A stretch of 64,000 nucleotides of DNA from Candidatus Brocadiia bacterium. GTDB taxonomy: Bacteria > Planctomycetota > Brocadiia > CAIUPP01. The position numbers were made by a program, and so were the translations under genes. Below are positions 4,746 through 50,326 of this stretch, piece by piece. Position 1 is the first letter of the stretch; each line of letters begins with the position of its first letter. The stretch covers positions 32,001-96,000 of the forward strand of contig JBEKCB010000009.1 in NCBI GenBank assembly GCA_050015075.1. The letters run 5' to 3'. The notes under the pieces were generated by a model, which saw only the letters and a list, made by a program, of their open reading frames with translations, did no database searches and was not told the DNA's origin.

Positions 4746-4827
4746 AACCGCCGATGAACGCAGATGAACGCCGATAAGAAACTCAAACGCAATTCGTATC
4801 TGCGTTCATCGGCGTCCATCGGCGGTT
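4746..4827. repeat. Inverted 10-mer tandem-repeat element (AACGCAGATG-type x3, spacer, reverse complement x3)
   Basis: aaccgccgatgaacgcagatgaacgccgat...atctgcgttcatcggcgtccatcggcggtt. Confidence 0.9.
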
Positions 4828-4836
4828 CAACCACTT

Positions 4837-4869
4837 ATTGGATATTGGAAATTCGGATTTGGAAATTGA
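4837..4869. repeat. Heptamer tandem repeat (ATTGGAA-like, x4-5)
   Basis: attggat attggaa attcgga tttggaa att, just after the priA stop. Confidence 0.7.
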
Positions 4870-4876
4870 CGCTGCG

Positions 4877-7105
4877 CTACAGCAGCGACACCGGGTCCAC
4901 GTCCACGGTCAGTTCAACGCCTTCGGCGCGGCGGCGGTCTACGCCGCGGAGGGCATCGCGGAGCGCTTCGGGATCGGGGGCCTTGATGAGCGCGTGCCAG
5001 CGGAACAGGTTGTTGATGCGCCGGATGGGCGCTTCCGCCGGACCGACTACGCTGACCGTTTTGGCCGTCACTCGCGCCCGAAGCGCGGCGACGGCTTCCG
5101 TGCAACGCTTCTGCGTCTGGCCGGCGTCGCGGCCCCTGTAGATCAGCCGCGCGAGGCGCGTGTACGGCGGATAGCCGTACCGCTTGCGTTCCTCCAGCTC
5201 TCGCCGGGCGAACGCCTCGTAGTCGTGTTTCGCCGCGTCGCGGATGCAGGACTGGTCCGGCTCGAAAGTCTGCACGATGACGCGCCCGCCTTTCGGCCCG
5301 CGGCCCGTCCGGCCGGCGACCTGCGCCAGGAATTGAAAGGTCCGCTCGCTGGCGCGGAAGTCCGGCATGTGGATGCTCGTGTCCGCGTTGATCACGCCGA
5401 CCAGCGTCACGTTGGGGAAGTCCAGCCCTTTCACGACCATCTGCGTGCCGAGGAGGATGCGGGATTTCCCGGCGCGGAACGCCTCCAGCACGTTCCCGTG
5501 GCTTCCCCGGGTCTTCATGGAATCGGTGTCCATCCGCGCGACGCTGCCGGCGCCGAAGAGCCGCTGGACTTCCTGCTCGACGCGCTCCGTGCCGGAGCCG
5601 TGGAGCAGCTTGATTCCATGTAGCCCGCAGCTTGGGCATGCCGCCGGCGGCTGCGTCTTGTAGGCGCAGTAGTGGCAGCGGGCGGTGTCGCTCTCGCGGT
5701 GGTAGATCAGGCTCACGTCGCAGTTCGCGCAGCGCAGCACGAACCCGCAGCGCGGGCAACTGATGTACGTGTTGAAGCCGCGGCGGTTGAGGAAGAGGAT
5801 CACCTGCTCGCCCTTCCCGAGCGCGGTTTCCATCGCCAGGCGGAGCCGCCGCGAGAGCAGCGGCGGCAGCCCCTTCTTGCTCAGCTCGGTCGCCAGGTCG
5901 TGAATCTCGACCGGCGGCAGCGGCCGTCCCTCGACGCGGCGCGGGAGCGTGAGCAATTCGTACTTCCCCGAGCGCGCGTTGTAGAGGCTTTCGAGCGACG
6001 GCGTGGCGGAGCCGAGGATGACGAGGGCGTTCTCTTGGCGCGCGCGCCAGATGCCGACGTCGCGTGCGTTGTAGCGCGGGGCGTTCGGCTGCTTGAAGGA
6101 AGGATCGTGCTCCTCGTCCACGACGAGCAGGCCGAGTTTCGGCACTGGCGCGAAGACGGCGGAGCGCGTGCCGACGACGACGTCGGCCCGGCCTTCGTGG
6201 ATCGCCGTCCACTGCTCGCGCCGCTCGGAATCGGTGATGTCGCTGTGCAGCACGCGGACGCGGTCGAACCGCGCGCGGAACCGCGCCACCGTCTGCGGCG
6301 TGAGGGCGATCTCCGGCACGAGGACGATGCCCTGCCGGCCCGAGGCGACGCAGAGGCTCAGCGCCCGCAGATAGACTTCCGTCTTGCCGCTGCCGGTAAC
6401 GCCGTGGAGCAGCGCCACGTGGAACCGCCCGCGCCCGAACGCCGCCTGGATGCGGTCGAGCGCCGCCTGCTGCTCGGGTGTCGGCACCGGCGGCTCGGTG
6501 CGCTCGACGGGAGAATCGAGGAGCGGATCGCTCGCGGCCCTTTTCACCAGGGTCAGGAAGCCGGCCTCGCCGAGCTTCGCGATGACGCTCGCGGCGGCCG
6601 CGGCGAGGCGGGCCAGTTCGCCGGCGGCGATTTCGCCCTGAATCCCTGCCAGCGCGCGGAGCATGCGCGCCTGCCGCGGCGAGCGCTTCTCGATCTGCGC
6701 GGCGTGCGCGAGCAGTTCGTCCGCAGGGCGCGCGGCGGAAACCCACTGGACCGTCCGCGCGACGGCGCCTGTCTTGATGACCGAGGGCAGGACGGCATCG
6801 AGCGTCTTGCCCCAGGAACAGCAGTAATATCGGGCCATCCACTCCGTCAGGTCGCGCATGTGCTCATCGAGGAACGCGCGCTGGTCCAGCACCCCGAGAA
6901 TGTCCCTGACGCGCGCGAAATGGATGCCGGGATCGGCCGAGAACTTGATGCACGTCCCGGTCATCTCGCGCCGGCCGAACGGCACGCGCACCCGCGCGCC
7001 GACCGCGACCGCCCCACGCAGCGCCTCCGGCACCCGGTAATGGAACAGTTTGTCCATGGGCACATTCAACGCCACCGCCGCATAGAGAGGAGGTGCGTCC
7101 GCCAT
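4877..7105 (-). CDS. priA: Primosomal protein N' (replication restart helicase)
   Basis: GARVRVPFG, LLHGVTGSGKTEVY, VVDEEHD, Cys-rich zinc region, GTQMVVKGLDFP, QVAGRTGR. Confidence 0.97.
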   Translation of the reverse strand: MADAPPLYAAVALNVPMDKLFHYRVPEALRGAVAVGARVRVPFGRREMTGTCIKFSADPGIHFARVRDILGVLDQRAFLDEHMRDLTEWMARYYCCSWGKTLDAVLPSVIKTGAVARTVQWVSAARPADELLAHAAQIEKRSPRQARMLRALAGIQGEIAAGELARLAAAAASVIAKLGEAGFLTLVKRAASDPLLDSPVERTEPPVPTPEQQAALDRIQAAFGRGRFHVALLHGVTGSGKTEVYLRALSLCVASGRQGIVLVPEIALTPQTVARFRARFDRVRVLHSDITDSERREQWTAIHEGRADVVVGTRSAVFAPVPKLGLLVVDEEHDPSFKQPNAPRYNARDVGIWRARQENALVILGSATPSLESLYNARSGKYELLTLPRRVEGRPLPPVEIHDLATELSKKGLPPLLSRRLRLAMETALGKGEQVILFLNRRGFNTYISCPRCGFVLRCANCDVSLIYHRESDTARCHYCAYKTQPPAACPSCGLHGIKLLHGSGTERVEQEVQRLFGAGSVARMDTDSMKTRGSHGNVLEAFRAGKSRILLGTQMVVKGLDFPNVTLVGVINADTSIHMPDFRASERTFQFLAQVAGRTGRGPKGGRVIVQTFEPDQSCIRDAAKHDYEAFARRELEERKRYGYPPYTRLARLIYRGRDAGQTQKRCTEAVAALRARVTAKTVSVVGPAEAPIRRINNLFRWHALIKAPDPEALRDALRGVDRRRAEGVELTVDVDPVSLL

Positions 7106-7199
7106 CGAGCGCCGCTTTCCGCCGCGATTCGGTCAGAGATTGAACTGGTCTAACGTCGGCAGAGCATTGTAGCAAAGGCGACTGACACTGTATAAACTA

Positions 7200-8628
<1,429 letters not shown>

Positions 8629-8662
8629 CGAAGCTGCTCAATCGCCGTTAATCATTCGGGAA

Positions 8663-8707
8663 TCCGCCTTCGCCCTTCGACTGCGCTCAGGCCTACGGCG
8701 GACAAGT
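8663..8707. repeat. Nested REP-like palindromes between convergent genes
   Basis: TCCGCCTTC[GCCCTTCGACTGCGCTCAGGCC]TACGGCGGACAAGT. Confidence 0.7.
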
Positions 8708-8719
8708 CGGCAGGCCTGT

Positions 8720-10011: not shown

Positions 10012-10083
10012 AAAAGCGCGCAAAGCGCAAAATGCGTCGGGCTTGTCGAAGGCCGTTCGCACTTTTCATTTTGCATTTTCCGC
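10012..10083. repeat. Inverted heptamer element (GCAAAAT / TTTTCAT-TTTGCAT arms) with a degenerate REP-like core
   Basis: aaaagcgcgcaaagcgcaaaatgc gtcgggcttgtcgaaggc cgttcgcacttttcattttgcattttc. Confidence 0.65.
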
Positions 10084-12269: not shown

Positions 12270-12288
12270 CACCATCGGGCCGCACCCA

Positions 12289-12390
12289 ATCGTCCTCGTC
12301 CTCGTCGTCGTCCTCGTCCTCGAACTGACGTTTAGAACGACCGAGGACGAGGACGACGACGAGGACGGTTACGAGGACGGCGATTACGAT
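12289..12390. repeat. GTCCTC/GAGGAC palindromic repeat element, copy 1
   Basis: (tcgtcc)n TCGAAC-loop-ACGACC (gaggac)n. Confidence 0.9.
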
Positions 12391-16478: not shown

Positions 16479-16568
16479 AACCACAGATAACACAGATGAA
16501 CACAGATACGAAGAATCAGGCAGTCCGTTTCCGTCGTCATCTGTGTTCATCTGTGTCCATCTGTGGTT
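16479..16568. repeat. Inverted 10-mer tandem-repeat element (ACACAGATGA-type)
   Basis: aaccacagataacacagatgaacacagat...atctgtgttcatctgtgtccatctgtggtt. Confidence 0.9.
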
Positions 16569-18380: not shown

Positions 18381-18381
18381 C

Positions 18382-20679: not shown

Positions 20680-20772
20680 ATCGTCCTCGTCCTCGCTCTC
20701 GTCCTCGTCCTCGGTCGTAACTAACAGCGGTTCGAGGACGACGACGAGGACGAGTATGAGGACGAGGACGAT
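20680..20772. repeat. GTCCTC/GAGGAC palindromic repeat element, copy 2 (reverse orientation)
   Basis: Loop reads TCGAACCGCTGTTAGTTACGACCGAGG on the minus strand. Confidence 0.9.
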
Positions 20773-21432: not shown

Positions 21433-21568
21433 ACCATCGGCGACGGACCATCGTCCTCGTCGTCGTCCTCCGCCCTCGTCCTCGTCCTCCGCCCTCGTCC
21501 TCGTCCTCGTCCTCGTCGTCGTCCTCGTCCTCGAACCGCCGTTAGTTACGACCGAGGACGAGGACGAT
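21418..21568. repeat. GACGATG-type heptamers plus GTCCTC/GAGGAC element, copy 3
   Basis: Loop TCGAACCGCCGTTAGTTACGACCGAGG; long TCGTCC arm. Confidence 0.9.
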
Positions 21569-21634
21569 CTAGCGCGGGCGACGCCATTTCTGCTATCCGC
21601 CGCGTTTCCCCGTTTCTCTTGCGCCTCTTCGCGG

Positions 21635-22309
21635 CTAAACTTTTTTCAGCCGTCCCCGCGCGCGGCGGGCTTCATCCTCGGCGATCCACGATTTCGCGAG
21701 CGCCTCGACTTCGGCCGGCGCGAGGTCGGTCGGTCCGCCGATCGCGCGCCGCCGCAACGACGCGGCGATGTAGATCGAAATCCCGGCGGCGACGGAGACG
21801 TTCAGGCTCTGCGAGAAGCCGGGCATCGGCAACTGGTATCGCCCGTCGCACGCCGCGAGCAACTCGTCGGAAAGCCCGGCGTGCTCGCCGCCGAAGACCA
21901 GCGCCACCTTGCGCCCGAAATCCAGCGCCTCGATCGGCTGCGCCGCGCGGTCGGGCACCGCCGCCCACAGGCCGAAGCCCTGCTGGTGCAGCGCCCCGGC
22001 GCACGCCGCGCCGTCGGCATGCGCGTGAAGCTCCAGCCATTTCTCGCAGCCGCAGGTGATCGCGCGGTTGAGCGGCAGATCTTCCATCGCGCCGACCAGG
22101 TGAACGTGCTGCACGCCGAACCCCTCGCACGAGCGCAGGACGGCGCTGATGTTGTGCGGATCGTGGACGCCGTCGAGCACCACGCGCACGCCGCCGAGCC
22201 GCCGGCCGGCCACCAGCCGCATCCGCGCGGGCCGGCGCTCCTCTTCCGGGATGTCCGGCGGCAAGTCCTCCGGAACGGGCGCTCGACCGGATGATCGTTT
22301 CGTCGCCAA
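21635..22309 (-). CDS. TrmH/SpoU-family RNA 2'-O-methyltransferase
   Basis: DPHNISAVLRSCEGFG, FGGEHAGLS, MPGFSQSLNVSVAA. Confidence 0.92.
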   Translation of the reverse strand: MATKRSSGRAPVPEDLPPDIPEEERRPARMRLVAGRRLGGVRVVLDGVHDPHNISAVLRSCEGFGVQHVHLVGAMEDLPLNRAITCGCEKWLELHAHADGAACAGALHQQGFGLWAAVPDRAAQPIEALDFGRKVALVFGGEHAGLSDELLAACDGRYQLPMPGFSQSLNVSVAAGISIYIAASLRRRAIGGPTDLAPAEVEALAKSWIAEDEARRARGRLKKV

Positions 22310-28253: not shown

Positions 28254-28336
28254 GGCGAACCTGGTCACCCTCCACACGCCCCGTATCGCCATAGACACGC
28301 TCCTCGGAAAAGGTCCGGTTCGCCGTAACGTGCTAG

Positions 28337-28462
28337 ATGGCCGGCCAAATAGGTCGGTTGACAAACCGCTCCGGCTCCTCTTTCCAATCAGGCGCGCGTG
28401 GGCGTATTGTTATCCAGAACGGCCGAGAAACAACTTGACGGTGGGCACGCTTTGAGTACAAT
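28337..28462 (+). repeat. Promoter-bearing repeat, copy B
   Basis: 54-bp core with 53/54 identity to copy C; TTGACG-16-TACAAT. Confidence 0.85.
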
Positions 28463-28561: not shown

Positions 28562-29428
28562 ATGAAGCGGATACTCATCCTGCTGCATGAGCACTTCAAA
28601 CACGAACAGTATCTTATCTATCGTCTCCGCGAGGCGTGGCAGAAACAGGGGCTGCACGTATCATGTGTTTACGGCATTAGAGACCGGCCCGAGGCAGACC
28701 TGCTGATTCCGCACGTTGATCTGACGCGAACACCTCCCGAATACATCGAGTACATCCGATCCTATCCCAACGCCGTCAACCGCAATGTGGTGGATATCTC
28801 CAAGCGCAGGATCAGCGCGAACCTGCTTCGCGGTGACGAGGACTTCCGCGGGCCGGTCATTGTGAAGACCGACAACAACTCGGAAGGCGGCTCGGAGGAG
28901 TTCCTGTACCGATGCCGGCATCCCCATCTCGCGTGGCTCCGGGGGAAAGCGAGCGCGGTCCAGGCGCATCTGGCCGGGCATCGTTCCACGGCGCGGAGTG
29001 GTCTGCACGAATATCCTGTCTACAGCAGCCTGGCGGAGGTTCCCGCCGGCGTGTTCAGAAACCGGGCGCTCGTGGTGGAGAAGTTCCTTCCGGAGAGAGA
29101 GGGCGATCGCTACTTCGTGCGTGTGTACGTTTGCCTGGGCAGTCACACACAAAGCATCCGCATCGCCGACTCGAAGCCCTTCGTGAAAAGGCCCGCGGCT
29201 CGGCAGGTGGACGAAGGACTTGAGGTTCCCGAGCCGGTGCTGGACCTGCGCCGCCGGATCGGCTTGGATTATGGCAAAATTGATTACACGATTCATGAGG
29301 GGCAGGTCGCCATCCTGGACGTGAGCCTCACGCCGGGGTGGTCTGCCGGGACTGAGCTGACGGCGCGCACAGTCGGCATCCTGGCGGGCGGCATCTGGTC
29401 GCTGCTGCCGAACCAGGGAAATACTTGA
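28562..29428 (+). CDS. Hypothetical protein with ATP-grasp-like features
   Basis: DISKR, PVIVKTDNN, VVEKFLPE, GLDYGKIDY, ILDV. Confidence 0.7.
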   Translation: MKRILILLHEHFKHEQYLIYRLREAWQKQGLHVSCVYGIRDRPEADLLIPHVDLTRTPPEYIEYIRSYPNAVNRNVVDISKRRISANLLRGDEDFRGPVIVKTDNNSEGGSEEFLYRCRHPHLAWLRGKASAVQAHLAGHRSTARSGLHEYPVYSSLAEVPAGVFRNRALVVEKFLPEREGDRYFVRVYVCLGSHTQSIRIADSKPFVKRPAARQVDEGLEVPEPVLDLRRRIGLDYGKIDYTIHEGQVAILDVSLTPGWSAGTELTARTVGILAGGIWSLLPNQGNT

Positions 29429-29500: not shown

Positions 29501-29611
29501 GGTCATTCGGCTCGCTTGCCTCCCGGAAATGTCGGCCGAAGGCCATGAGCCGTTCGACGTTGCTAGCGGCCCTGAGTCCATCGAAGGGCGAACGAAGCGA
29601 GTTGAATGGCC
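29501..29611. repeat. Nested REP-like hairpin abutting repeat copy C
   Basis: GGTCATTCGGCTCGCTT...AAGCGAGTTGAATGGCC arms enclosing GCCCTGAGTCCATCGAAGGGC. Confidence 0.65.
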
Positions 29612-29741
29612 GGCCAAATAGGTCGGTTGACAAACCGCTCGGGCTCCTCTTTCCAATCATGCGTGCGAGGGGTGCGCGTGCGCGTATCGTTTTACAGAAC
29701 AGCCGGGAAAAACTTGAAAACAGGCTCTTTGAGAGTACAAT
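29606..29741 (+). repeat. Promoter-bearing repeat, copy C
   Basis: 54-bp core; TTGAAA-16-TACAAT. Confidence 0.85.
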
Positions 29742-29828: not shown

Positions 29829-30311
29829 ATGACAATACTTATGAAAACATCGTGCAATATCGCCAGGCCTGATTTTATCTTGCAGGTTGAAGCGATCGAG
29901 CCATCGAACACTGGTTTTCTTAAAAACCGGCCGTGTCGGCTAATACTTGCAGATGGGAAAGCTGTTGAACGTGCGATTTGCGTGGAAGATCATCGTGGAT
30001 TCTCAGGCAAGTGGTGGATCCACCCGGAATGCGTCGCAAGGATTGAGGCGTCACGAGAGAGGATGCCGGCGAACCTCGCATCCAAGTTGTACGTCGCAGG
30101 CGAATCAGGAATGGGTTACCAGATATTCAAAGTTAAAATGAGAGACGGCACATCCTATCCGTTCCTTACCGGGAACATCGTTGATTTTCCGGATTTCCCT
30201 GAGGGATACAGCACGGATGATGTCGTGGAAGTATACCCGCACGAAGGAAGATACGAATTCGGCCTGAGGCGGAGCCGGAGTTTCAAGTGGTGTTTCTATG
30301 TTAAAGAATGA
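29829..30311 (+). CDS. Hypothetical protein, lower GC
   Basis: 160-aa ORF downstream of the copy C promoter; AGESGMGY..FLTGNIVDF..PHEG. Confidence 0.7.
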   Translation: MTILMKTSCNIARPDFILQVEAIEPSNTGFLKNRPCRLILADGKAVERAICVEDHRGFSGKWWIHPECVARIEASRERMPANLASKLYVAGESGMGYQIFKVKMRDGTSYPFLTGNIVDFPDFPEGYSTDDVVEVYPHEGRYEFGLRRSRSFKWCFYVKE

Positions 30312-30357
30312 ATCTCCTGCGGAATTCGGCGGACACCATAGGCAACTACGGATGAAC

Positions 30358-30455
30358 TCCCAACACCCAACATCGAACGTCCAACGCCCAGGTACTCGCG
30401 CAATCCGAGCCGCCGACTTGGACGTTGGGCGTTCGGCGTTGGATGTTGAGCGTTG
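30358..30455. repeat. Inverted heptamer element (CAACRYC / GRYGTTG arms)
   Basis: caacacc caacatc gaacgtc caacgcc...gacgttg ggcgttc ggcgttg gatgttg agcgttg. Confidence 0.85.
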
Positions 30456-33460: not shown

Positions 33461-33475
33461 TAGAACTGAACAAAC

Positions 33476-33509
33476 TAAGGACCTGGCCGCCTGAGCGGCC
33501 AGGTCCTTA
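33476..33509. terminator. Perfect hairpin between convergent genes
   Basis: TAAGGACCTGGCCGC-CTGA-GCGGCCAGGTCCTTA. Confidence 0.7.
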
Positions 33510-33511
33510 AT

Positions 33512-33551
33512 TAATCAGCATTCGGCATTCGGCAATCGCCAATCGGCAATC
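33512..33551. repeat. Heptamer tandem repeat (CAWTCGG), single arm
   Basis: cattcgg cattcgg caatcgc caatcgg caatc; same family as 7344. Confidence 0.8.
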
Positions 33552-33807: not shown

Positions 33808-34365
33808 CTATCGCGGCAGCACGCGCAGCGGGTCCACGAACTGATCGTTCTCCATGACGCGGAATTGAAGCTCCGCCCTGCTCGCGCCGCTCGAAGGACC
33901 GACGGTGGCGATCGCTTCGCCCTGCTTGACCCACGTCCCGTGCGTCACGAGGATCTCGCCCAGGCGCCCGTAATACGTCGCGCTGCCGTCCTCCTGCTCG
34001 AGCACGATCACCTTGCCGTACTCGGGCGTCTTCTCGAAGATGTTCACGCGCCCGCTCTTGGCCGCGACCACCGTCTGCCCGGCCGTGGCGCGGATGTCCA
34101 CGCCGGAACCGCTCTCCATGAACCGCGCAACGATTTCTCCCCGCAGCGGCCACACGAAGCGCGGCTCGGCCGGAATCGGGCCGCTGTATCCGGGATTGCG
34201 CACCGCCACCGGCGGCTTTGGCGTCGCGATCTCGACGGTTTCGGCGGGCGCGGGCGGCGTGATCGTGTAAGCGGCCGGCCGCACCGGTGCGGGCCTTACG
34301 CACCCGGCCGGAATCGCGGCCAGCAACAGGCCGGCGACTCCGGCGCACCGGCGCCACAGGCTCAT
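33808..34365 (-). CDS. M23/NlpD-EnvC-like lipoprotein with degenerate metal site
   Basis: Lipobox PAGC; WPLRGEI, GVDI, YGKVIV, VKQGEAIA, VDP; HxH position reads ELQF. Confidence 0.8.
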   Translation of the reverse strand: MSLWRRCAGVAGLLLAAIPAGCVRPAPVRPAAYTITPPAPAETVEIATPKPPVAVRNPGYSGPIPAEPRFVWPLRGEIVARFMESGSGVDIRATAGQTVVAAKSGRVNIFEKTPEYGKVIVLEQEDGSATYYGRLGEILVTHGTWVKQGEAIATVGPSSGASRAELQFRVMENDQFVDPLRVLPR

Positions 34366-34399
34366 GCTCACGGCTGATCCGCCCATCGTTATAAAATTA

Positions 34400-34474
34400 T
34401 GGAGCGGCGGAAGGGACTCGAACCCTCGACGTGCAGCTTGGGAAGCTGCCATTCTACCACTGAATTACCGCCGC
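34400..34474 (-). tRNA. tRNA-Gly (anticodon CCC)
   Basis: GCGGCGG acceptor stem, CTTCCCAAG anticodon region, GGTTCGAGTCC T-arm, CCA end. Confidence 0.96.
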
Positions 34475-34570
34475 CTCACTTGGCGCGAAAGCGTCGTCGC
34501 GCCGCAATGAATCCTCGGCGATTATATCGTCCGCCGTTCTCCTCCGTCAAGTTGCGCTCCCGCCGCCGCC

Positions 34571-34599
34571 TTGACAGGCCCGGCGCGGGAGACCATAAT
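34571..34599 (+). promoter_or_regulatory. Sigma70-type promoter for aroA'-aroB'
   Basis: TTGACA-17-CATAAT; divergent TTGACG-18-TATAAT for the tRNA at 34521-34550. Confidence 0.6.
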
Positions 34600-34656
34600 T
34601 CGGCAGGAAGGCGCGCCGCAGCAGCCCGCGCCGCGCGAGGTTTTGGAGGCCATAAG

Positions 34657-35460
34657 ATGATCGGCAAAACGATCCGGCTCGAACGCATCATTGACCGCAA
34701 TTCCGGCCGCACGGTCATCGTGCCGATGGACCACGGCATCACCCTGGGTCCGATCCGCGGGCTGGAGGACATGCGCACGACCGTCGAGCGGATCGTCGCC
34801 GGCGGCGCCAACGCGATCATCGAACACAAGGGCATCGTCGTCTCCGGGCATCGCGGCTCGGGAAGGGACATCGGGCTGATCGTCCACCTCTCGGCGAGCA
34901 CGTCGCTCAGCCCGGACCCGGACTCCAAAGTCGGCGTCACCGAGGTCGAGGAGGCGATCCGCATCGGCGCGGACGGCGTCTCCGTGCACGTGAACCTCGG
35001 CGCCTCGACGGAGATGGAGATGCTCCGCAACCTCGGCCGCACGGCGCGCAAGTGCAGCGACTGGGGCATTCCGCTCCTGGCGATGATGTACACGCGCGGC
35101 GAGAAAATCCAAAACCCGTTCGACGTCAAGTACGTCAAGCACGCCGCGCGCGTCGGCGCGGAACTCGGCGCGGACGTCGTCAAGGTCGTCTACACCGGCG
35201 CGGTCGAGAGCTTCCGCGAGGTCGTCGCCGGCTGCCCGGTGCCGGTCCTGATCGCCGGCGGCGAGAAGATGGAATCCGACGAGGAATTGCTCACGGTCGT
35301 CGCCGGCGCGCTCAAGGCCGGGTGCGCCGGCGTCAGCATCGGCCGCAACGTCTTCCAGCACCGGAACCCGATGCGGATGATCGAGGCGATCAGCGCGCTG
35401 GTGCACCGGAACAAGAGCGTCGCCGAGGGGCTCAGGATTCTCAAAAAAAGGCAGCAATGA
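34657..35460 (+). CDS. aroA': 2-amino-3,7-dideoxy-D-threo-hept-6-ulosonate (ADH) synthase, DhnA-type aldolase
   Basis: [38 protein letters not shown]; ATGA overlap with DHQ synthase II. Confidence 0.88.
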
Positions 35461-36449
35461 AAAAAGTCTGGGTGCAGATCATCCCGTGGGACAAGCCGCT
35501 CGCGCTCGCGGCGCTGGAGGGCGGCGCGGACGCGGTGGTGCTGGCCGCCGGCGACGCGCCGCGCATGCGCGAACTCGGCCGCATGACCGTCGTCGCGCCC
35601 GACGGCGACCTGCGCCCCGGCCGCGACCTGACGGAGATGGAGATCCGCTCGAAGGCCGACGAGCGCGCCGCCGCCGCCGCGCCGGGGAACCGCACGCTGC
35701 TGCTGCGCATGGCCGATTGGACGATCATCCCGCTGGAGAACCTCATCGCGCAGCGCGGCAACATCCTCGTCGAGGTCGCCGGCGCCGAGGCCGCGCGCAC
35801 CGCCGCCGGCATCCTGGAAAAAGGCGTGGACGGCGTCGTCCTCGCCGCGCGCGACCCGGAGGAAGTCCGCAGGACCATCCGGCTCGTCCGGGAGATCGGC
35901 GAGTCGCTCGCGCTCGAGACCGCCGCGGTCGTCGAAGTCCGCACGCTCGGCATGGGCGACCGCGTCTGCGTGGACACCTGCACGCAGATGGAGCCCGGCC
36001 AGGGAATGCTCGTCGGCAACACCACCGAGGGCTTCCTGCTCGTCCACAGCGAGAGCATCGAGAACCCGTACGTCGCCGCTCGGCCGTTCCGCGTCAACGC
36101 CGGCGCCGTGCACGCCTACGCGCTGTGCCCCGGCGGCCGGACGCGCTACCTGAGCGAGCTGAAGGCCGGCGACGAGGTCCTGATCGTGGACCACGCCGGC
36201 CGCACGCAGGTGGCCTACATCGGCCGCGCCAAAGTCGAGCGCCGACCGCTGATGCTCGTCCGGGCCGAACTCGCCGGAAAGGAAATCGCGCTCGTCCTCC
36301 AGAACGCCGAGACCATCCGCCTGACCGCGCCCGGCGGCAAGCCGATCAGCGTCGCCGCCCTCAAGCCCGGCGACCCGGTCCTCGCCCACCTCATGGGCGG
36401 CGCGCGCCATTTCGGCATGAAGGTCACCGAGACGCTGAGGGAGCGATGA
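35457..36449 (+). CDS. aroB': 3-dehydroquinate synthase II
   Basis: [45 protein letters not shown]. Confidence 0.93.
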
Positions 36450-36474: not shown

Positions 36475-36546
36475 ATCGTCCTCGTCCACGGCCTCGTCCT
36501 CGAACTGGTTCTAACGACCGAGGACGACGACGAGGCCGAGGACGAT
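36475..36546. repeat. GTCCTC/GAGGAC palindromic repeat element, copy 4
   Basis: atcgtcctcgtcc..TCGAACTGGTTCTAACGACCGAGGACGACG..gaggacgat. Confidence 0.88.
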
Positions 36547-37233: not shown

Positions 37234-37263
37234 AATCCGTGGCCATCCGTGCAATCCGTGGCT
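37234..37263. repeat. 10-mer repeat, single arm (ATCCGTG x3)
   Basis: atccgtggcc atccgtgca atccgtggct; resembles the right arm at 16540-16568. Confidence 0.7.
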
Positions 37264-39653: not shown

Positions 39654-39713
39654 GAGACTTTCGCGCGCCGCGCGGCCACGGCCGAAAGGCAGAAAATTTA
39701 TCGCGCTATTCGC

Positions 39714-39742
39714 TTGACATACAAGAAAACTTATGATATACT
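39714..39742 (+). promoter_or_regulatory. Sigma70 promoter with extended -10, between etfB and etfA
   Basis: TTGACA-17-TATACT with TGn. Confidence 0.65.
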
Positions 39743-39830
39743 CCCGCAAGCGAATGAGGGCTGAAGAGCGGCCGCGTGTCGAAGGTTGCAAGTTGTTGAC
39801 GGGGAAGAACCTAACGCGCAAAAAGCGAAT

Positions 39831-39976
39831 TGAAAAAACGAATCCAAATTGATTTGAAAAAACGAACCCGGCTTGTCCTAAACTGTGGTTCGTAGCAAAA
39901 AGGAACGCGAGCGGGAATCACGTCTTAGGCAGGAACGAGGCGATCTGAAAAAACGAACCCAATTTGTCGTAAACTG
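39831..39976. repeat. Direct repeats TGAAAAAACGAAYCC x3
   Basis: Copies at 39831, 39855 and 39946; the last two extend to GTCSTAAACTG. Confidence 0.8.
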
Positions 39977-39997
39977 CTGTGCTGAGGAAGAAAACGA

Positions 39998-41014: not shown

Positions 41015-41076
41015 GAAGTATGAGTGATGAATGACGAAGCACTTCCTCATTCATCATTCGCAGTTCCGACTTCCAT
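41015..41076. repeat. Short inverted heptamer element (GAATGAY / TCATTCR)
   Basis: aagtat gagtgat gaatgac gaag...tcattca tcattcg cagttcc gacttcc. Confidence 0.65.
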
Positions 41077-45405: not shown

Positions 45406-45473
45406 ACTGCTCCCCGTTCTGCAGTCCCCACTCGACAGTTCGCACTCCTCAGTCCGGACTCCTCACTCCGCGC
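45406..45473. repeat. Heptamer tandem repeat (CASTCCN), single arm
   Basis: cagtccc cactcga cagttcg cactcct cagtccg gactcct cactccg. Confidence 0.7.
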
Positions 45474-45504
45474 TTAAGTCGCGAGGAAGGAAGGAGCGAG
45501 CGAC

Positions 45505-46026
45505 ATGGGAGCCGTCGGCTACGTCATCGTCGCGCTGGTCATCACCGTCGTCGTCCTCGTCGCACTCTTCACGGTTTACCGGAGTCGCGGCCAACGGCCG
45601 GACCTCGTCATCCACATCAGCGCGCCGGTCATCAAGCCGGTCAACAACCGCCCGGAGTGGTACCTGGATTTCGTCGCGGAATTCGCCAACGTCAGCCCGG
45701 CCGCGCTCTCAGTCGTCGGCTTGCGCTCGGCCGTCTCCGCCCCGAAGCAGGCCCCGCTCGAGGCCAAGCGCATCCTCGGCGACGACGAGAGCCAGCGCCA
45801 CGCCGTGCACCATCCGCCCGACATCGCCCTGCGCCTGCCCATCGCAGTCGCGCCCGGCCGCCGCGTCAACTACCGCTTCCACATCTTCTTCTCCGTCCAT
45901 CTGCGTCGCATGTGGGACAAAGGACTCCTCCACCTTTACGCGACCGCCGACGACGGAGCCGCCTACGAAGCCGTCCGCGTCCTCACCGCGCCCGAAGACG
46001 AATCCGCCAGACCGCCCGCTGAATAG
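45505..46026 (+). CDS. Hypothetical protein with N-terminal TM anchor
   Basis: AAGGAG RBS; host-like codon usage. Confidence 0.7.
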   Translation: MGAVGYVIVALVITVVVLVALFTVYRSRGQRPDLVIHISAPVIKPVNNRPEWYLDFVAEFANVSPAALSVVGLRSAVSAPKQAPLEAKRILGDDESQRHAVHHPPDIALRLPIAVAPGRRVNYRFHIFFSVHLRRMWDKGLLHLYATADDGAAYEAVRVLTAPEDESARPPAE

Positions 46027-46344
46027 CCCCGCCTTTAATCGCAGTTGAACGCTTTCCGAGTACCCCGCATTCTCACACACATCTGTCTGATCGTTTCAGC
46101 CATGCGGCACTGACAACCGGCCCTATCGGCGGACGGTCTCCTTCGCCCAGCGCGTGCCGCGTATGACGCTTTTCTACTATTGATTGTGGAAAAGGCTGTC
46201 TGGAGGCTGCATGACAGGTTGTGAAAAGCTGCAAGAATCGTCCGGGCGGGCACTACATATTGTATATAGGCTCAAATACCACACATCGCCTAGGTGTTTT
46301 TCCTATGGTAGCTCAGCGTTTTACCTCTAAAAGCCGTTTTTCTC

Positions 46345-46408
46345 TTGACTGTGGGGCTCGATTCCACTATTTTTATGTCATGTGTCTCTCAGTGGGGGTA
46401 AATCCCAC
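46345..46408 (+). promoter_or_regulatory. dcw promoter with two GTGGG-containing palindromes (candidate MraZ sites)
   Basis: TTGACT-17-TATTTT; GTGGGGCTCGATTCCAC fills the spacer; GTGGGGGTAAATCCCAC at 46392. Confidence 0.6.
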
Positions 46409-46441
46409 AGAGATACGATTTCTTTTTGCGGTGAACGACTC

Positions 46442-46939
46442 ATGTTCGTCGGTAAGTACCCAGTCCGGCTCGACGCCAAGAACCGGGTCATTGTACCGCA
46501 GCGACTGCGCGAGTCACAAATCGAGGGTGGCCCGCTCTGGTCGAAGTTCTATCTGACCCTCGGGACAGAATCCTGCATCGCCGTCTACACGCCGGAAGGC
46601 TGGCAACAGTTAATGCAGGAGATGGGCGCGGCGAAATCGGTGGTGGACGAGTCGGTGAGAATCCTTCAGCGCATGACCGCCGCAAACGTGGATATGCGCG
46701 AGTGTGACGCGCAAGGACGGGTGGTCCTTTCCGACGAGCTGCGCAGCCACGCGGGAATCACGCGCGACCTGATCTGGATCGGCGCGGTGTCCCGCGCGGA
46801 AATCTGGAACCCGGAACGCTGGGCTGCGTTCAACCGGAAACATATTGCGGAGCTGGGCGAGAAGATGGACATCGTCTCACGAGCCGGTCTCGCCCTGCCC
46901 GAACGAAACGATCCTTTGAGGAGAGGGCCGCAGGGCTGA
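46442..46939 (+). CDS. mraZ: Transcriptional regulator MraZ
   Basis: MFVG..LDAKNRV..P, DAQGRV, EIW; first gene of the dcw cluster. Confidence 0.92.
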   Translation: MFVGKYPVRLDAKNRVIVPQRLRESQIEGGPLWSKFYLTLGTESCIAVYTPEGWQQLMQEMGAAKSVVDESVRILQRMTAANVDMRECDAQGRVVLSDELRSHAGITRDLIWIGAVSRAEIWNPERWAAFNRKHIAELGEKMDIVSRAGLALPERNDPLRRGPQG

Positions 46940-47055
46940 CCCCGGCCTCTTCATCGCCTCCCGCATGGAGGCGCGGACAGAAGCGCAAATATGAGCAGCA
47001 CGATTCTCCGTAGTGAGAACAGTGTACGGGCTTGGCACCATCGGCATGGCGGCTT

Positions 47056-47123
47056 GCCCTGGAGGGGCGGGCGCTTCCGACAACATAAAATGTGCGGGAA
47101 GATGCAGCCCCCCCTCCTCGGGC
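47056..47123 (+). ncRNA. Long hairpin in the mraZ-rsmH spacer (candidate cis-regulatory RNA)
   Basis: GCCC/GGGC, GGAGGGG/CCCCTCC, GGGC/GCCC, CTTCC/GGAAG and ACAT/ATGT stacked stems. Confidence 0.45.
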
Positions 47124-47155
47124 ATTTCGCCGCCGGCCTGACCGACGAGGACGCG

Positions 47156-48079
47156 ATGACGGAATCCGGGGCGCCGTTGCATGTGCCGGTGATGCTCGAG
47201 GAATCCCTCCGCCTGCTGGATCCAAAACCCGGCGAGACGATCGTGGACGGCACGCTCGGCGCCGGCGGGCATTCCCGCGCGATCCTGGCGGCGCTCGGCG
47301 CCGCGGGCCGGCTGATCGGCGTGGACCGCGATCCGAAGATGGCGCAGATCGCCCGCCAGAAACTGCTCGGCGTCTCCGCCGGCGCGAAAGTCGAAATCCT
47401 CACCGGCCACTTCGGCGACCTGCCGGCCGTTCTGGCGACCATCGGCGTCGAGGCGGCCGACGGCGTGCTGCTCGATCTGGGCGTGGCCTCGCCGCAACTG
47501 GACGATCCGTCGCGCGGGCTGAGCTATCGCGCCGACGGGCCGCTGGACATGCGCCTGACGCCGGACGCCGAGCTTTCGGCCGAGGAGTGGATCAACCGGG
47601 TCCCGCAGGACGAACTGGCGCAGGTGCTGCGCGAGTACGGCGAGGAGCGCTTCTCCGGGCGGATCGCCCGGGCCATCGTCGAGGCGCGCGCGCGCAAACC
47701 GATCCGCCGCACCGGCGAGCTGGCGGAGATCATTGCGCGCTCCGTACCGCGCGGCCCGCGCCGGCTGCACCCGGCGCGCAGGAGTTTCCAGGCGCTGCGC
47801 ATCCGCGTCAACGAGGAGATGCAGCAACTCGAACGATTTCTCGCGGCGATCGCCCGGCTGCTGAAGCCGGGCGGGCGCTGCGCGATCATCAGCTATCACT
47901 CTCTCGAAGACCGTCGCGTGAAGAACGCCTTTCGCGACGGCGCCCGGGAAGGGATTTACGAACTGCTGACCCGCAAGCCGATGCGGCCGTCATTTGCCGA
48001 AGTCTCCGAGAATCCTCGGAGCCGCTCCGCCCGGCTGCGCGCTGTCCGCAGAAACGACGCAGGCGTGAGCCTGAAATGA
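47156..48079 (+). CDS. rsmH: 16S rRNA m4C1402 methyltransferase
   Basis: HVPVM, DGTLGAGGHS, DLGV, PLDMR, FQALRI, SYHSLEDR, NPRSRSARLR. Confidence 0.97.
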   Translation: MTESGAPLHVPVMLEESLRLLDPKPGETIVDGTLGAGGHSRAILAALGAAGRLIGVDRDPKMAQIARQKLLGVSAGAKVEILTGHFGDLPAVLATIGVEAADGVLLDLGVASPQLDDPSRGLSYRADGPLDMRLTPDAELSAEEWINRVPQDELAQVLREYGEERFSGRIARAIVEARARKPIRRTGELAEIIARSVPRGPRRLHPARRSFQALRIRVNEEMQQLERFLAAIARLLKPGGRCAIISYHSLEDRRVKNAFRDGAREGIYELLTRKPMRPSFAEVSENPRSRSARLRAVRRNDAGVSLK

Positions 48080-48092
48080 GAGGAATCGAAAC

Positions 48093-48410
48093 GTGACTCC
48101 GGCGCGGTACATCCTGTTGCTGCTGCTCGCCAGTTTCTTCGCCCTCCTGGGCGTGGCGCAGCGCGCGCATGGGGTTCACCTGGGGCTTCGCGTGGGGTAT
48201 CTCAAGGCCGAAACGGACCTCCTCGCCGAGAACAACCGCCAACTCCTCTGTGAAATCAGCGCGCTCTCCGATCCGGTGCAGATCGCCGGCCAGGTCGAGC
48301 GTATGAAACTTGCGCTGCTGGACCCGGTTGTGCTGACCAAGGCCGTCGCGGCGGAACGTGACGGCGAAACGGTCGCGCCGGTTCCGAAGGCCCCGCCGAC
48401 GCGGCGGTGA
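48093..48410 (+). CDS. ftsL: FtsL-like protein
   Basis: TM helix then coiled coil (ENNRQLLCEISALSDP); located between rsmH and the PBP gene. Confidence 0.65.
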   Translation: MTPARYILLLLLASFFALLGVAQRAHGVHLGLRVGYLKAETDLLAENNRQLLCEISALSDPVQIAGQVERMKLALLDPVVLTKAVAAERDGETVAPVPKAPPTRR

Positions 48411-48463
48411 CCGGCAGCGGCGCAAGTCGCGGACAAGGGATTTCGAGAGGAGAGGTTCAGGCC

Positions 48464-50326
48464 ATGGAGGCGTCCCCGCAGAAGAACTTTCGCCTGCGGC
48501 TGATCTGCGTCAGTTGCGCCCTCCTTGCCGCCTTCCTCGGACTGGCGGCGCGCCTGGCCTACGTCCAGGCTTACCAGCATCCGAAGTGGACAGCGCTCGC
48601 CGACCGGATGGAAGCCGATTGCGTGACGATCGAGGCGGAGCGCGGGCTGATCCTCAGCCGCGACGGACGCACCCTGGCCGCGAGCGCGCACGTGCCCTCG
48701 ATCTACATCAATCCGCGCGCCGTCCCGGCTGAGCGCCGCGACGAGGTCGCCGCCGCGCTCGCGGAAATCCTCAAGGTGGACGCGAACGACCTGGCCGACC
48801 AGCTCGCCCGCCCGAAGTATTTTGTCTGGGTCAAGCGCAAAGTCTCGCCCTCGGAATCCGAGGCGGTGCTGGCCGCCGAACTGCCGGGCGTCGGCATCCG
48901 CGACGAACCGAACCGCTGCTATCCGAACGGCACGCTGCTCTGCCACGTGCTCGGCGCGGTCGGCGCCGACGGCAACGGGCTCGCCGGCCTCGAGGCGGAG
49001 GACAACGCGGCCCTCTCCGGCGCAGCCGGCTCGGAGTTGGTGTACAAGGACGGACTCGGCCGCACGATGTTCGCCGCGCATCTCTCGAACGCGCTGGAGA
49101 TGGTCAGCCCCGAAGAGACCCAGGCCGGCATGATCCGCCCGGCGGTGAACGGGCATTCGCTGATCCTCACAATTGACGCGCGCATCCAGGAGATCGTCGA
49201 GCAGGAGTTGCGCCAGGCATGCGAGAAATACAGGCCTGAGTCAGGCAGCTCCGTCGTGCTCGATCCATGGACCGGCGACGTGCTCGCGATGGCCTGCTGG
49301 CCGACGTTCGATCCGGCGCATTTCGCCTCGACGCCGCCGGCGATCCAGCAGAATATGGCCGTCTCCGTGGCCATCGAGCCGGGCTCCACGTTCAAGCCGT
49401 TCGTCTGCTCGAAAGCGCTCGAGGCGGGCGTGGTGACGCCCGACACGGTGTTCGACTGCCACCAGGGCGTGTACCGCATCGGCTCGCGCACGCTGCACGA
49501 CGCGCACGGCTACGGCCGGCTCAGCGTGCGCGACATCATCGCCTACAGCAGCAACATCGGCATGGCGCAGGTGGGCGAACGCCTCGGCCCCGAGCGGATG
49601 TACGCGGGGCTTTCCCTGTTCGGCTTCGGGCGCAAGACCGGCATCGAGCTGCCCGGCGAATCCGCCGGACTGCTCCATCCGCTCCGGCAGTGGACGAAGC
49701 TGAGCGTCTCCTCGCTCCCGATGGGCCAGGAAGTCGCCGTCAGCGCGCTCCAGTTGACCGCCGGATTCTGCACGTTCGCGAACGGCGGCTGGTGGGTCCG
49801 TCCGCGGATCGTGCTCGGGACGGCCGACAGCCAGGGCCGCAACATGCTTCGGAGCGCCACGCCGCCGGCGTACCATCGCGTGCTCGACGAGCGCGTCGCG
49901 AAGCTGATGTGCGGCGACCTCCTCGCGGCGGTCGTCGAGAGAGGCACGGCGCGCGACTCCGCCATCGCGGGCTACCAGATGTCCGGCAAGACCGGTACGC
50001 CCCAATTGTCGCGGCCGGGCGCGCGCGGATACGAGCCGGGCGCATACGCCTCGGTGTTCGTCGGGATCGTCCCGACGAGCGCGCCGAGGTTCGTGATCAG
50101 CGTCATGATCAAGAAGCCGCAGGCGGCGTATTACGGCGGCGTGGTCGCCGCGCCCGCGGTCGCGCATATGGCCGAACGAATCCTGAGCATGTTCCAGGTC
50201 CCGCGCGAGTCGCCGGATGAGCCGGAAACCAAGGCCGTCGTCACGAAAGCGGCGTTATCGCAGAAATTGAACCATGAGGCTTTCACCACGAAGAACGCGA
50301 AGGACGTGAAGAAAGAAACGTGGTGA
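48464..50326 (+). CDS. ftsI: Class B penicillin-binding protein (FtsI-like)
   Basis: RG.I.SRDG, EPGSTFK (SxxK), SSN, KTGT. Confidence 0.92.
   Translation: MEASPQKNFRLRLICVSCALLAAFLGLAARLAYVQAYQHPKWTALADRMEADCVTIEAERGLILSRDGRTLAASAHVPSIYINPRAVPAERRDEVAAALAEILKVDANDLADQLARPKYFVWVKRKVSPSESEAVLAAELPGVGIRDEPNRCYPNGTLLCHVLGAVGADGNGLAGLEAEDNAALSGAAGSELVYKDGLGRTMFAAHLSNALEMVSPEETQAGMIRPAVNGHSLILTIDARIQEIVEQELRQACEKYRPESGSSVVLDPWTGDVLAMACWPTFDPAHFASTPPAIQQNMAVSVAIEPGSTFKPFVCSKALEAGVVTPDTVFDCHQGVYRIGSRTLHDAHGYGRLSVRDIIAYSSNIGMAQVGERLGPERMYAGLSLFGFGRKTGIELPGESAGLLHPLRQWTKLSVSSLPMGQEVAVSALQLTAGFCTFANGGWWVRPRIVLGTADSQGRNMLRSATPPAYHRVLDERVAKLMCGDLLAAVVERGTARDSAIAGYQMSGKTGTPQLSRPGARGYEPGAYASVFVGIVPTSAPRFVISVMIKKPQAAYYGGVVAAPAVAHMAERILSMFQVPRESPDEPETKAVVTKAALSQKLNHEAFTTKNAKDVKKETW

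Follow-up and report, generated by a model that had tools for sequence, protein, structure and literature searches.

Here, we describe short-period tandem-repeat elements in the window (the whole 64-kb stretch of DNA analysed in this study). We consider it somewhat probable (roughly 0.55) that they belong, as members with no ORF, to a class of small selfish cassettes in which self-complementary tandem-repeat arms surround a short core. This class is best read as also taking in the cyanobacterial STRR hairpins (a name that reportedly goes back to Mazel and co-workers in 1990), the paired heptamers of Xanthomonas and the stem of the 23S rRNA intervening sequence (IVS). A full cassette would carry a four-helix-bundle gene (TIGR02436/PF05635, S23p, Avd-like) between its arms and would land at the exact boundary between one stop codon and the start codon that follows it, frequently within operons, and the window copies might have been derived from such cassettes via loss of the ORF or might have been propagated without it. 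The suggestion of the earlier note that the window elements could be the empty form of such a cassette appears to be a reasonable reading, because inverted arms surround TIGR02436 genes, the ORF moves along with its arms, and copies exist that have these arms and no ORF. Since there is no cargo gene in the window, the link between its elements and the cassettes is by architecture and analogy only.

Using TRF (period 5-12, at least 2.5 copies and a score of at least 36), we identified 23 short-period tandem arrays in the window, compared with a mean of 2.55 (SD 1.6, maximum 6) in 100 order-3 Markov simulations. Six arms in the window were paired, within 200 nt, with a reverse complement of 80% or more, and no such pair arose in any of the 100 simulations. 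Fifteen of the 23 arrays were located in intergenic DNA, which makes up 11.2% of the bases (binomial p = 1e-9). The eight genic arrays include six GC-rich ones of period 9-12 (four of them of period 12), which look like ordinary coding low complexity, and the two at 7344 and 50289 that had been proposed previously.

The earlier note had described about 20 elements of a single two-armed design. Of the 18 sites claimed, 14 contained a TRF array and a 15th, at 41015, was supported by a 25-nt inverted repeat with no TRF array. Eight two-armed hairpins agree with the proposed design; six elements are one-armed (4836, 7344, 33513, 37234, 45406 and 50284), and three or four sites are weak or unsupported: those at 10012, 21418, 21605-21637 and 26690 (the last within an ORF, TRF score 31) rank no higher than 6-15% of the 40-nt windows of the background. 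The discrete periods of 6, 7 and 9-10 were seen by TRF as proposed: a heptamer unit occurs in the elements at 4836, 7344, 30355, 33513, 41015 and 45406, and the strongest elements have period 6 (four copies) or 10 (two copies). According to our own gene calls, elements start 1-44 nt downstream of the upstream stop codon, and the placement just past stops that had been noticed before was confirmed, including the pheA|tpiA, coaC|coaB and etfA|acd junctions. The RNA folds of the two-armed elements range from -22.5 to -65.6 kcal/mol, with z-scores of -5.0 to -9.4 in seven of the eight and of only -2.6 in the one at 21450, and their spacers are 2-33 nt long. They do not resemble CRISPR arrays, as the units are 6-10 nt long and contiguous, with inverted arms, versus repeats of 25-40 nt with unique spacers.

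Four of the two-armed elements share a TCGTCC hexamer. The first (12288..12380, unit TCGTCC/CGAGGA) is located 19 nt past the stop of a SpoIIE-GAF gene and 49 nt ahead of mutL, and has 33-nt arms with 91% complementarity, a conserved loop and a fold of -65.6 kcal/mol (z -7.8). The second (20680..20772; -64.6 kcal/mol, z -7.9) begins 3 nt past the coaC stop in coaC|coaB, its loop being inverted relative to that of the other three copies. The third (21450..21568; TRF score 120, -43.5 kcal/mol) begins 18 nt past the coaB stop and has very unequal arms, the left one expanded to 13.5 units that contain a higher-order repeat of 19 nt and the right one only 15 nt long, around a loop of the same family. 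The fourth (36475..36546; -43.9 kcal/mol, z -5.0) lies 26 nt past the stop of the DHQS-II gene. Two further hairpins are built from 10-mers: the one at 4746..4827, in the gap that separates priA (minus strand, stop at 4877) from the next gene on that strand (start at 4706), has 35-nt arms of about three units of GATGAACGCM (89% complementary), a 12-nt loop and a fold of -53.3 kcal/mol (z -8.1), and the one at 16479..16568 (unit ACAGATGAAC; -51.5 kcal/mol, z -9.4) begins 31 nt past the pheA stop in pheA|tpiA. The remaining two are made of heptamers. A degenerate one (AACNCCC/TTGGGCG, 30355..30455; arms 77%, spacer 33 nt, -64.0 kcal/mol, z -7.4) is found 44 nt past a hypothetical gene, and an ATGAGTG/ATGAATG hairpin (41015..41066; 80% over its inverted repeat, -22.5 kcal/mol, z -5.2) begins 1 nt past the etfA stop and ends 25 nt ahead of acd.

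Among the one-armed elements, the TATTGGA array (4836..4868, 4.7 copies, TRF score 36-49, top 3% of background windows) follows the priA stop at a distance of 9 nt and is stacked next to the 4746 element, 8 nt away. A perfect array of 4.9 CAATCGG units on the plus strand (7344..7377; 100% matches, TRF score 68) was placed in the 5' part or the leader of a HAD-hydrolase ORF whose HAD domain begins at residue 57; its reverse-complement partner reaches only 62%, and a 15-nt reverse-complement fragment of it is present at 7200-7215. Also on the plus strand, 5.6 copies of AATCGGC detected by TRF (33513..33551, top 0.1% of background windows) abut a perfect 18-bp hairpin (33473-33512) downstream of sod, and three copies of the 9/10-mer AATCCGTGGC (37234..37262; TRF score 44, -20.6 kcal/mol, z -2.4; weak when judged by ungapped periodicity) sit in the loop of a short GAAGCCG...CGGCTTC stem. 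The degenerate 7/14-mer array CAGTCCS CACTCCT (45406..45471, plus strand; TRF period 14, score 58), which is not significant at periods up to 12, is 15 nt past the pilT2 stop and forms no hairpin (fold z -1.4). Finally, 2.8 copies of a 9-mer resembling ACGAAGAAC (50284..50325, plus strand; TRF score 36, -14.8 kcal/mol, z -2.8) are enclosed by a CACCACG/CGTGGTG stem within the last 14 codons of ftsI.

These elements were previously regarded as one window-wide system with unrelated unit sequences. The former is an overstatement, as several families are present instead, and the latter is partly wrong, since sequences are shared within families. The four TCGTCC elements have 46 invariant columns, loop included, the elements at 4746 and 16479 share 10-mer arms, and the unit CAATCGG is common to 7344 and 33513. 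The 10-mer family was also found in two other planctomycete-like genomes (L023 and L016), where the arms occupy different junctions. Of 31 stem pairs in this family, 8 carry changes on both sides. In other genomes, arrays of period 8 were found as well.

To see how these junctions look in relatives, we compared 18 syntenic loci with the window. The gene order of the window is planctomycete-like and, among the matches listed, its best TpiA relatives are Pirellulales/Phycisphaerae metagenome-assembled genomes with identities of at most 62%, so the comparison is one at order or class distance; genomes closer to the host of the window may exist among those outside the matches listed. At coaC|coaB, a clear two-armed element was present in 3 of 12 junctions, each with a different unit length (a 6-mer in the window, a 10-mer in L023 and a 9-mer in L041); of the rest, two had weaker arrays (L016 and L007), five were empty and two were otherwise altered (L005 and L062). 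The pheA|tpiA element was found in the window only (one of eight junctions measured), the junctions of the seven relatives being 31-82 nt long and element-free. Conversely, yicC|gmk contains an element in L023 and L016 and none in the window. Judged from these sequences, the elements act like lineage-specific insertions and not like conserved regulators, one and the same junction being empty or holding differing families across genomes, a mobile-type behaviour as had been suspected. In one relative (L049), a TIGR02436 gene (E = 3.7e-20) adjoins tpiA and is followed by a heptamer array.

Evidence for the cassettes themselves came from plasmids. The earlier note had stated that similar arms flank TIGR02436 genes, and this proved to be right: significant inverted arms of period 7 or 8 surround 16 of 21 annotated plasmid TIGR02436 genes, which are mostly cyanobacterial and non-independent, amounting to about 11 cassette families. 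In all eight ORF pairs with at least 77% identity, both members had the same arm unit (units read by eye). A 419-nt cassette including its arms (query positions 645-1063) recurs alone in four plasmids with different flanks. The empty site consists of a stop codon, 3 nt and ATG in five of the six cassette-free plasmids fetched, and at the filled site the insertion starts straight after TAG, filled and empty sites having no more than 'AT' in common. Arms and ORF are one transposed unit in these plasmids. Moreover, ORF-less two-armed elements are present in L104, L105 and L107 at the junction next to the cassette, their arms having 88-96% identity with those of the cassette, and in a 50-kb stretch of a Nostoc plasmid with 32 genes, six of eight period-7 arrays are in or beside the two four-helix-bundle genes. 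The earlier note had also named three outcomes that would speak against its proposal (lack of enrichment, no copy enclosing a cargo gene, and the same elements at identical junctions in distant relatives); what we found was a strong enrichment, copies with cargo, and shared junctions that hold unrelated families. On the other hand, the 5' arm was purine-rich in all 12 plasmid cassettes measured and their periods were 7-8, whereas in the window the commonest family is of period 6 with the opposite polarity and the other strong family is of period 10. Cargo-bearing copies of these period-6 and period-10 families were not seen in the sequences examined.

In agreement with the earlier note, neither a TIGR02436/PF05635 nor a GxxExxY gene was found in the window by HMM and regular-expression searches. 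The former were sought with NCBIfam on the 13 ORFs with no or uncertain assignment and with two local HMMs on the six-frame translation, one built from the best-listed 116 relatives of one member and the other from 73 representatives plus P0001; the family is abundant, with more than 1300 close relatives of one member. The spacers of the window elements contained no detectable remnant of a four-helix-bundle gene. In the L023 element at 4424-4647, the two best matches of the spacer to a TIGR02436 protein correspond to its N- and C-terminal ends and are colinear (E = 0.035 and 0.11 in a restricted test among 68 spacer fragments), which is suggestive of a putative four-helix-bundle remnant. The match had an E-value of 23 in an unrestricted tblastn over all DNA examined, no hit was obtained by NCBIfam/Pfam hmmscan, PDB phmmer or word search, the two local HMMs gave at most 1.2 bits, and the Atlas leads for this spacer were all below 0.9.

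A G..E..Y pattern search of 1.15 Mb of loci plus the window yielded six candidates. Five were scanned and none matched any family; the sixth (L044:11917-12396), excluded from the scan, is a dCMP deaminase by eye. No gene named GxxExxY was present in one 50-kb plasmid stretch. Arm pairs 630-700 nt apart in L047 and L044 were considered as cargo carriers and rejected, as what lies between them is another repeat and an ordinary gene (a dCMP deaminase by eye), with separate elements at each end.

Several other explanations were weighed. Host-selected RNA structures, that is, hairpins that process, stabilise or uncouple cistrons in polycistronic mRNAs, would fit the location of every element at a gene 3' end or between co-directional genes, the very stable stems and the occupation of coaC|coaB in several genomes, and passages of PMC2670836 propose transcript stability and translational coupling as roles of STRR. 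However, the sense strand was the more stable one in 7 of 16 cases and the antisense strand in 8, with one tie, and no T-run follows any element. Terminator-like sites occurred at chance level (13 versus 12.4 and 17 versus 14.0 in shuffles), and no two-armed element was flagged as a whole as an intrinsic terminator, the only inner match being a 9-pair stem at 4784-4808. Orthologous junctions are short and element-free in most relatives, and an Rfam search of the window elements matched no family. We regard such a role as unlikely, and the 'RNA structural punctuation' offered previously found no support in stem bias or terminators. An origin on the spot, in which replication slippage creates an array and fold-back (template-switch) synthesis its inverted copy with no mobility involved, could account for the one-armed arrays at 4836, 33513 and 45406 and for arm lengths as different as the 13.5 and 2.5 units at 21450; the heptamer copy number of the Coxiella IVS also differs between strains, as described in part of PMC4990558. 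What makes this origin decidedly unlikely is that unit, termini and loop are common to the four TCGTCC copies, that three distant genomes have the 10-mer arms in common at differing junctions, that plasmid arms relocate with their ORF to new flanks, and that random fold-back would hardly end exactly at array borders.

REP/BIME/REPIN and MITE-type repeats (such as Correia and ERIC) are small non-coding palindromes at gene ends that are co-transcribed and present in many copies. That the window elements are of this type and are mobilised in trans by a transposase encoded elsewhere (such as an IS200/IS605-type RAYT) would fit their being small, palindromic, intergenic, multi-family and sometimes nested, and the transposase may lie beyond the 64 kb of the genome seen here. 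Against this, 55 window ORFs were scanned and none matched a transposase family, and the arms consist of tandem repeats, not of one fixed palindrome of 20-40 nt whose head is conserved. Inspection by eye of the borders of the six clearest window elements revealed no target-site duplication. The arms are microsatellite-like and variable in unit and length. A sequence-specific transposase is disfavoured because such an enzyme would not tolerate units that differ among families, and this possibility appears improbable to us. A function at the DNA level, with non-mobile elements serving as protein-binding iterons or forming non-B DNA (G-quadruplex, i-motif or cruciform), is highly improbable. The stems are strand-symmetric, and G-rich heptamers of Xanthomonas and Nostoc have been studied as quadruplex formers according to passages of PMC4692102, but G-runs are missing from most window units (such as TCGTCC, ACAGATGAAC and CAATCGG), the diversity of units is too great for one binding protein, and presence or absence among relatives argues against a core function.

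Membership of ORF-less elements in a cassette class can also be judged against known systems, which have so far been reported piecemeal (STRR, Xanthomonas heptamers and rRNA intervening-sequence stems) with no common explanation given. STRR, the Xanthomonas GGGAATC repeats and Nostoc GGGGAYT have units of about 7 nt, as some of the window elements do, and resemble them in being intergenic and nearer to the upstream ORF, in often lying between co-directional genes and in often forming convergent pairs that can fold into stem-loops (passages of PMC2670836 and PMC4692102). For instance, STRR hairpins are located between hupS and hupL (in part of PMC2670836), and the GGGAATC repeats are 89-93% intergenic, at a mean distance of 28 nt from the upstream ORF, with 70-75 convergent pairs (in part of PMC4692102). 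Unlike the hosts in the original definition of STRR, the host here is planctomycete-like and not a heterocystous cyanobacterium, and the window has several unit families of period 6, 7 and 9-10 versus one dominant G-rich heptamer in Xanthomonas and Nostoc. The passages of PMC2670836 and PMC4692102 consulted draw no link to four-helix-bundle genes, PMC4692102 containing neither 'S23' nor 'four helix', and a search of literature other than subscription journals found no published statement linking tandem arms with a four-helix-bundle cassette.

The 23S rRNA IVS is similar in that its terminal inverted repeats form a long stem around a core, as in the window elements. In Coxiella, tandem heptamers precede an S23p ORF, the 28-bp terminal stem is cut by RNase III, the heptamer copy number varies and the ORF decays (passages of PMC4990558), and the plasmid cassettes follow the same plan, with a PF05635/TIGR02436 ORF between the arms. 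In contrast, the window elements have no ORF and lie between protein genes, not in helix 25 or 45 of 23S rRNA; no rRNA was found in the window. The cargo family is also related to the Avd proteins of DGRs: P0271 matched the DGR Avd model with an E-value of 5e-13, below the model cut-off, and PF22296 (bAvd) was listed for it. Unlike in DGRs, no reverse transcriptase, template repeat or variable repeat was seen near the cassettes examined or in the window.

If the elements are indeed ORF-less cassette members, their arm units would drift by slippage, with the complementarity of both arms being maintained at the DNA level. Once transcribed, long perfect stems might be cleaved by RNase III or block exonucleases, which would be a by-product through which the insertion becomes tolerable rather than a selected function. 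A broader reading, which we offer as possible but tentative, is that all these cases belong to a widespread and undescribed mobile cassette that has an Avd-like ORF, tandem-repeat arms and exact stop-to-start insertion, inhabits rRNA helices and operons, uses no known transposase and could move through an RNA or hairpin intermediate. On such a reading, RNase III would cut out the arms, the four-helix protein might play for nucleic acids the chaperone role that Avd plays for a reverse transcriptase, the arms would evolve in concert and leave only period and fold, hairpins that lack the ORF would remain as products of decay or as landing pads, and the window would be part of a planctomycete-like genome seeded with several such cassette families.

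One cassette plan would tie together STRR, Xanthomonas heptamers and IVS stems, with clean filled and empty sites, and would here come to include a planctomycete-like genome whose units are 6 and 10 nt long. Should the link hold, the 'four helix bundle protein', a very abundant family of unknown role, gains a testable context as the cargo of a mobile element, and odd intergenic repeats and spurious read-through 'hypothetical proteins' become explicable. For genome annotation, it should be kept in mind that insertions can rewrite the ends of ORFs, as exemplified by ftsI at 50284 and the HAD gene at 7344.

Tandem-repeat arrays were recovered by TRF at 14 of the 18 sites listed in the earlier note, and site 41015 was supported by a 25-nt inverted repeat rather than by TRF, whereas four sites proved weak (10012, 21418, 21605 and 26690) and were left out because 6-15% of background windows were at least as good. 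With a single filter, 23 arrays were found in the window versus 2.55 +/- 1.6 (maximum 6) in 100 order-3 Markov simulations of it, and six arms had a reverse-complement partner versus none in all 100 simulations. The enrichment is strong; the earlier note had listed a lack of it over a composition-matched null as refuting its reading. Fifteen of the 23 arrays were intergenic, in a window where intergenic DNA makes up 11.2% of bases (p 1e-9); six of the other eight were GC-rich with periods of 9-12 and resemble normal low-complexity coding sequence. Eight true two-armed hairpins were identified, seven with folds of -22.5 to -65.6 kcal/mol (z -5.0 to -9.4) and the eighth (21450) with very unequal arms and a z of -2.6. 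There were six one-armed arrays besides these hairpins, and 37234 and 50284 lay within the loop of a short stem.

The units had previously been described as unrelated. Separate families are indeed present, but TCGTCC (four times), a 10-mer and CAATCGG recur across sites. The four TCGTCC elements could be aligned over the unit, the termini (ATCG...CGAT) and a loop of 16-19 nt, with 46 invariant columns, the loop of copy 20680 being inverted relative to the others. The 10-mer design, AACC-(RCNGATGAAC)n...GGTT, was common to 4746, 16479, two elements of comparison locus L023 and one of L016, whose arms are 190 nt apart. In this family the loops were unrelated between copies, and 8 of 31 stem pairs in the four complete copies were altered on both sides and still paired. 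The unit CAATCGG was shared by 7344 and 33513, and AATCGG-like heptamers also occurred in L007 and L047.

According to Pfam annotation (55 ORFs), the window is an ordinary chromosomal stretch, with a GC content of ~66%, containing the run pheA-tpiA-secG-yicC-gmk-rpoZ-coaC-coaB, the dcw cluster (mraZ through ddl), and holB, priA, mutL, sod, type-II dehydroquinate synthase, etfBA-acd and two pilT genes. As had been claimed, the elements sit just past stop codons, starting 1-44 nt downstream in co-directional or convergent junctions, and no window element filled a divergent promoter region. The terminator scan detected no T-run on any of them and no excess of terminator-like sites in the window (the count was at shuffle level), and none had an Rfam match. 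Gene ends can also be rewritten by array insertions: (CAATCGG)x5 lies in frame within the N-terminal extension of a HAD hydrolase (7216-7400) and a 9-mer array forms the final 14 codons of ftsI (50284-50326). A plasmid gene end (L104, 200-226) was rewritten likewise.

The closest TpiA proteins among the matches listed from the genome collection were from Pirellulales and Phycisphaerae MAGs (at most 62% identity), and 18 of 80 comparison loci shared the order pheA-tpiA-yicC-gmk-coaC-coaB. The window thus comes from a planctomycete-like bacterium, and no close relative of it was among the sequences compared. Array density was uneven, with 43 of the 80 loci having no array and 3.6, 5.5 and 8.1 arrays per 10 kb in the window, L023 and L044, respectively. 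Among 12 coaC|coaB junctions measured, clear two-armed elements were found in the window (6-mer), L023 (10-mer) and L041 (9-mer), weaker arrays in L016 and L007, and no element in L001, L004, L012, L057 and L059; L005 and L062 were otherwise altered. In L062 (7611-7903, Phycisphaerae MAG), a direct repeat of ~70 nt replaces the tandem-arm hairpin. Of eight pheA|tpiA junctions, only that of the window (161 nt) had an element, the seven relatives having 31-82 nt without one, and yicC|gmk carried an element in L023 and L016 and none in the window (11 nt). By this comparison, the elements are insertions that landed independently at the same permissive spots, not conserved regulators. Stems were more stable on the sense strand in 7 and on the antisense strand in 8 of 16 cases; this lack of a sense-strand advantage points to arm complementarity maintained at the DNA level.

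The earlier note also mentioned arm-flanked TIGR02436 (four-helix-bundle) genes in other genomes. A tblastn search with the four-helix-bundle protein P0271 matched 31 plasmid records; 20 were examined which, together with one gene from a 50-kb stretch, gave 21 genes that are not independent (~11 cassette families, largely from cyanobacteria but also from Azospirillum and Riemerella). This was borne out for 16 of the 21, whose ORFs were tightly enclosed by significant inverted arms of period 7-8; the other five comprised one borderline case, two direct-orientation arrays, one single arm and one without arms. These cassettes were wedged at neighbour-gene junctions such as cas6|cas4, cmr2|cmr3 and nrdB|nrdA, in agreement with a published note of genes of this kind inside cas loci (PMC3936711). 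With units read by eye, all eight ORF pairs of at least 77% identity shared an arm unit, and the two pairs at 72-74% differed. In the 50-kb stretch (32 genes), six of eight period-7 arrays lay in or beside two four-helix-bundle genes. The 5'-side arm was purine-rich in all 12 cassettes measured among L081-L101 (0.53-1.0, at least 0.71 in 11), whereas the window TCGTCC family has the opposite polarity.

For one Nostoc locus, blastn revealed the cassette with the same flanks in five plasmids, the same flanks without it in nine, and the cassette alone with its arms (645-1063) in other flanks in four. Five of six cassette-free sites examined (of the nine) read stop codon, 3 nt, ATG, and the sixth had a small ORF at that position; the occupied site has the 419-nt unit starting immediately 3' of TAG. 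At a neighbouring junction, three plasmids carried ORF-less two-armed elements with arms 88-96% identical to the cassette arms, and one of the three had another of these elements nested within the first. Thus, the "empty form" that the earlier note had postulated is directly seen, in cyanobacteria.

Near the window's lineage there were two leads, in L049 and L023. No TIGR02436 or GxxExxY gene was present in the window. In L049, a TIGR02436 gene (E 3.7e-20) that is truncated at its 5' end and fused to the end of pgk lies immediately before tpiA, with a heptamer array downstream of it. This gene (2560-3075) is without its first ~20 codons and joined to the pgk 3' end in another frame; P0001 is its intact form, the remainder being 100% identical. 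For one four-helix-bundle protein, the protein collection contained >1300 relatives with an E value of at most 1e-5, and the 120 listed (P0001-P0120) were 73-100% identical to it, with sources, where given (few of the 120), named Deltaproteobacteria, Kiritimatiellia or "bacterium"; such identity and source labels among the relatives listed suggest a recent horizontal spread. In L023, (CAGTTGT)n and (ACTGACA)n arms lie 150 nt apart directly 3' of pheA, and this spacer gave the two best P0271 matches (E 0.035 and 0.11) among 68 six-frame spacer fragments, colinear with the N-terminal 14 and C-terminal 27 residues; the unrestricted search was not significant and profile tools found no match there. 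The four-helix-bundle protein P0160 follows the profile up to position 82, where it breaks off and gives way to a peptide with a period of 7 residues, which is read-through into a heptamer array. In L047 (3780-4620, Chromatiales MAG), (CAATGAA)n/(TTCATTG)n arms 650 nt apart enclose AAATCGG/AAATCGC arrays and a 46-nt repeat (second copy at 3780), with no recognisable gene between them.

The best explanation, to which we give a probability of about 0.55, would be that the window elements are ORF-less members of the four-helix-bundle cassette class. They would then be selfish insertions tolerated just past stop codons, whose arms may drift through slippage yet remain complementary. The phenomenon is already known piecemeal, from separate reports that each cover one part. 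In the Coxiella 23S-rRNA IVS, two or three tandem GACAGAT heptamers precede a decaying S23p ORF, and the terminal stem, of 28 bp, is cleaved by RNase III (PMC4990558). Xanthomonas GGGAATC repeats are 89-93% intergenic, on average 28 nt from the upstream ORF, with 70-75 convergent pairs that could form stem-loops, and Nostoc has GGGGAYT repeats; S23 and four-helix proteins go unmentioned in that report (PMC4692102). The hairpins between hupS and hupL consist of STRR heptamers, with no function assigned (PMC2670836). In the literature searched, we found no paper uniting IVS, heptamer repeats and STRR with the four-helix-bundle cassette.

Several other features of the window were observed. The stretch 2001-4706 has a GC content of 0.547 versus ~0.66 and stops at the 4746 element; neither of the two ORFs on its minus strand (176 and 429 aa) had a Pfam/NCBIfam match, and the stretch may be acquired DNA. 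A tRNA gene scoring 66 bits (34403-34474, minus strand) overlaps both adjacent longest-ORF calls (33808-34452 minus, 34399-35460 plus), whose real starts probably give shorter genes, and promoter-like sites lie at 34521-34599. A segment of ~90 nt (ATGGCCGGCCAAATAGGTCGGTTGACAAACCGCTC...) occurs at 28330-28420 and 29610-29700, each time upstream of a hypothetical gene (28562-29428 and 29829-30311), and looks like a duplicated promoter region. Within the 344-nt etfB|etfA spacer (39654-39997), a promoter-like site close to consensus lies at 39714-39742, and a ~35-nt motif (TGAAAAAACGAACCC..TTGTC.TAAACTG) is present three times; this differs from the tandem-arm elements. coaC and coaB are separate genes in the window and related loci. 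At 34399-36449, a DeoC-like aldolase adjoins the type-II (archaeal-type) 3-dehydroquinate synthase, a pair that suggests the alternative entry to the shikimate pathway.
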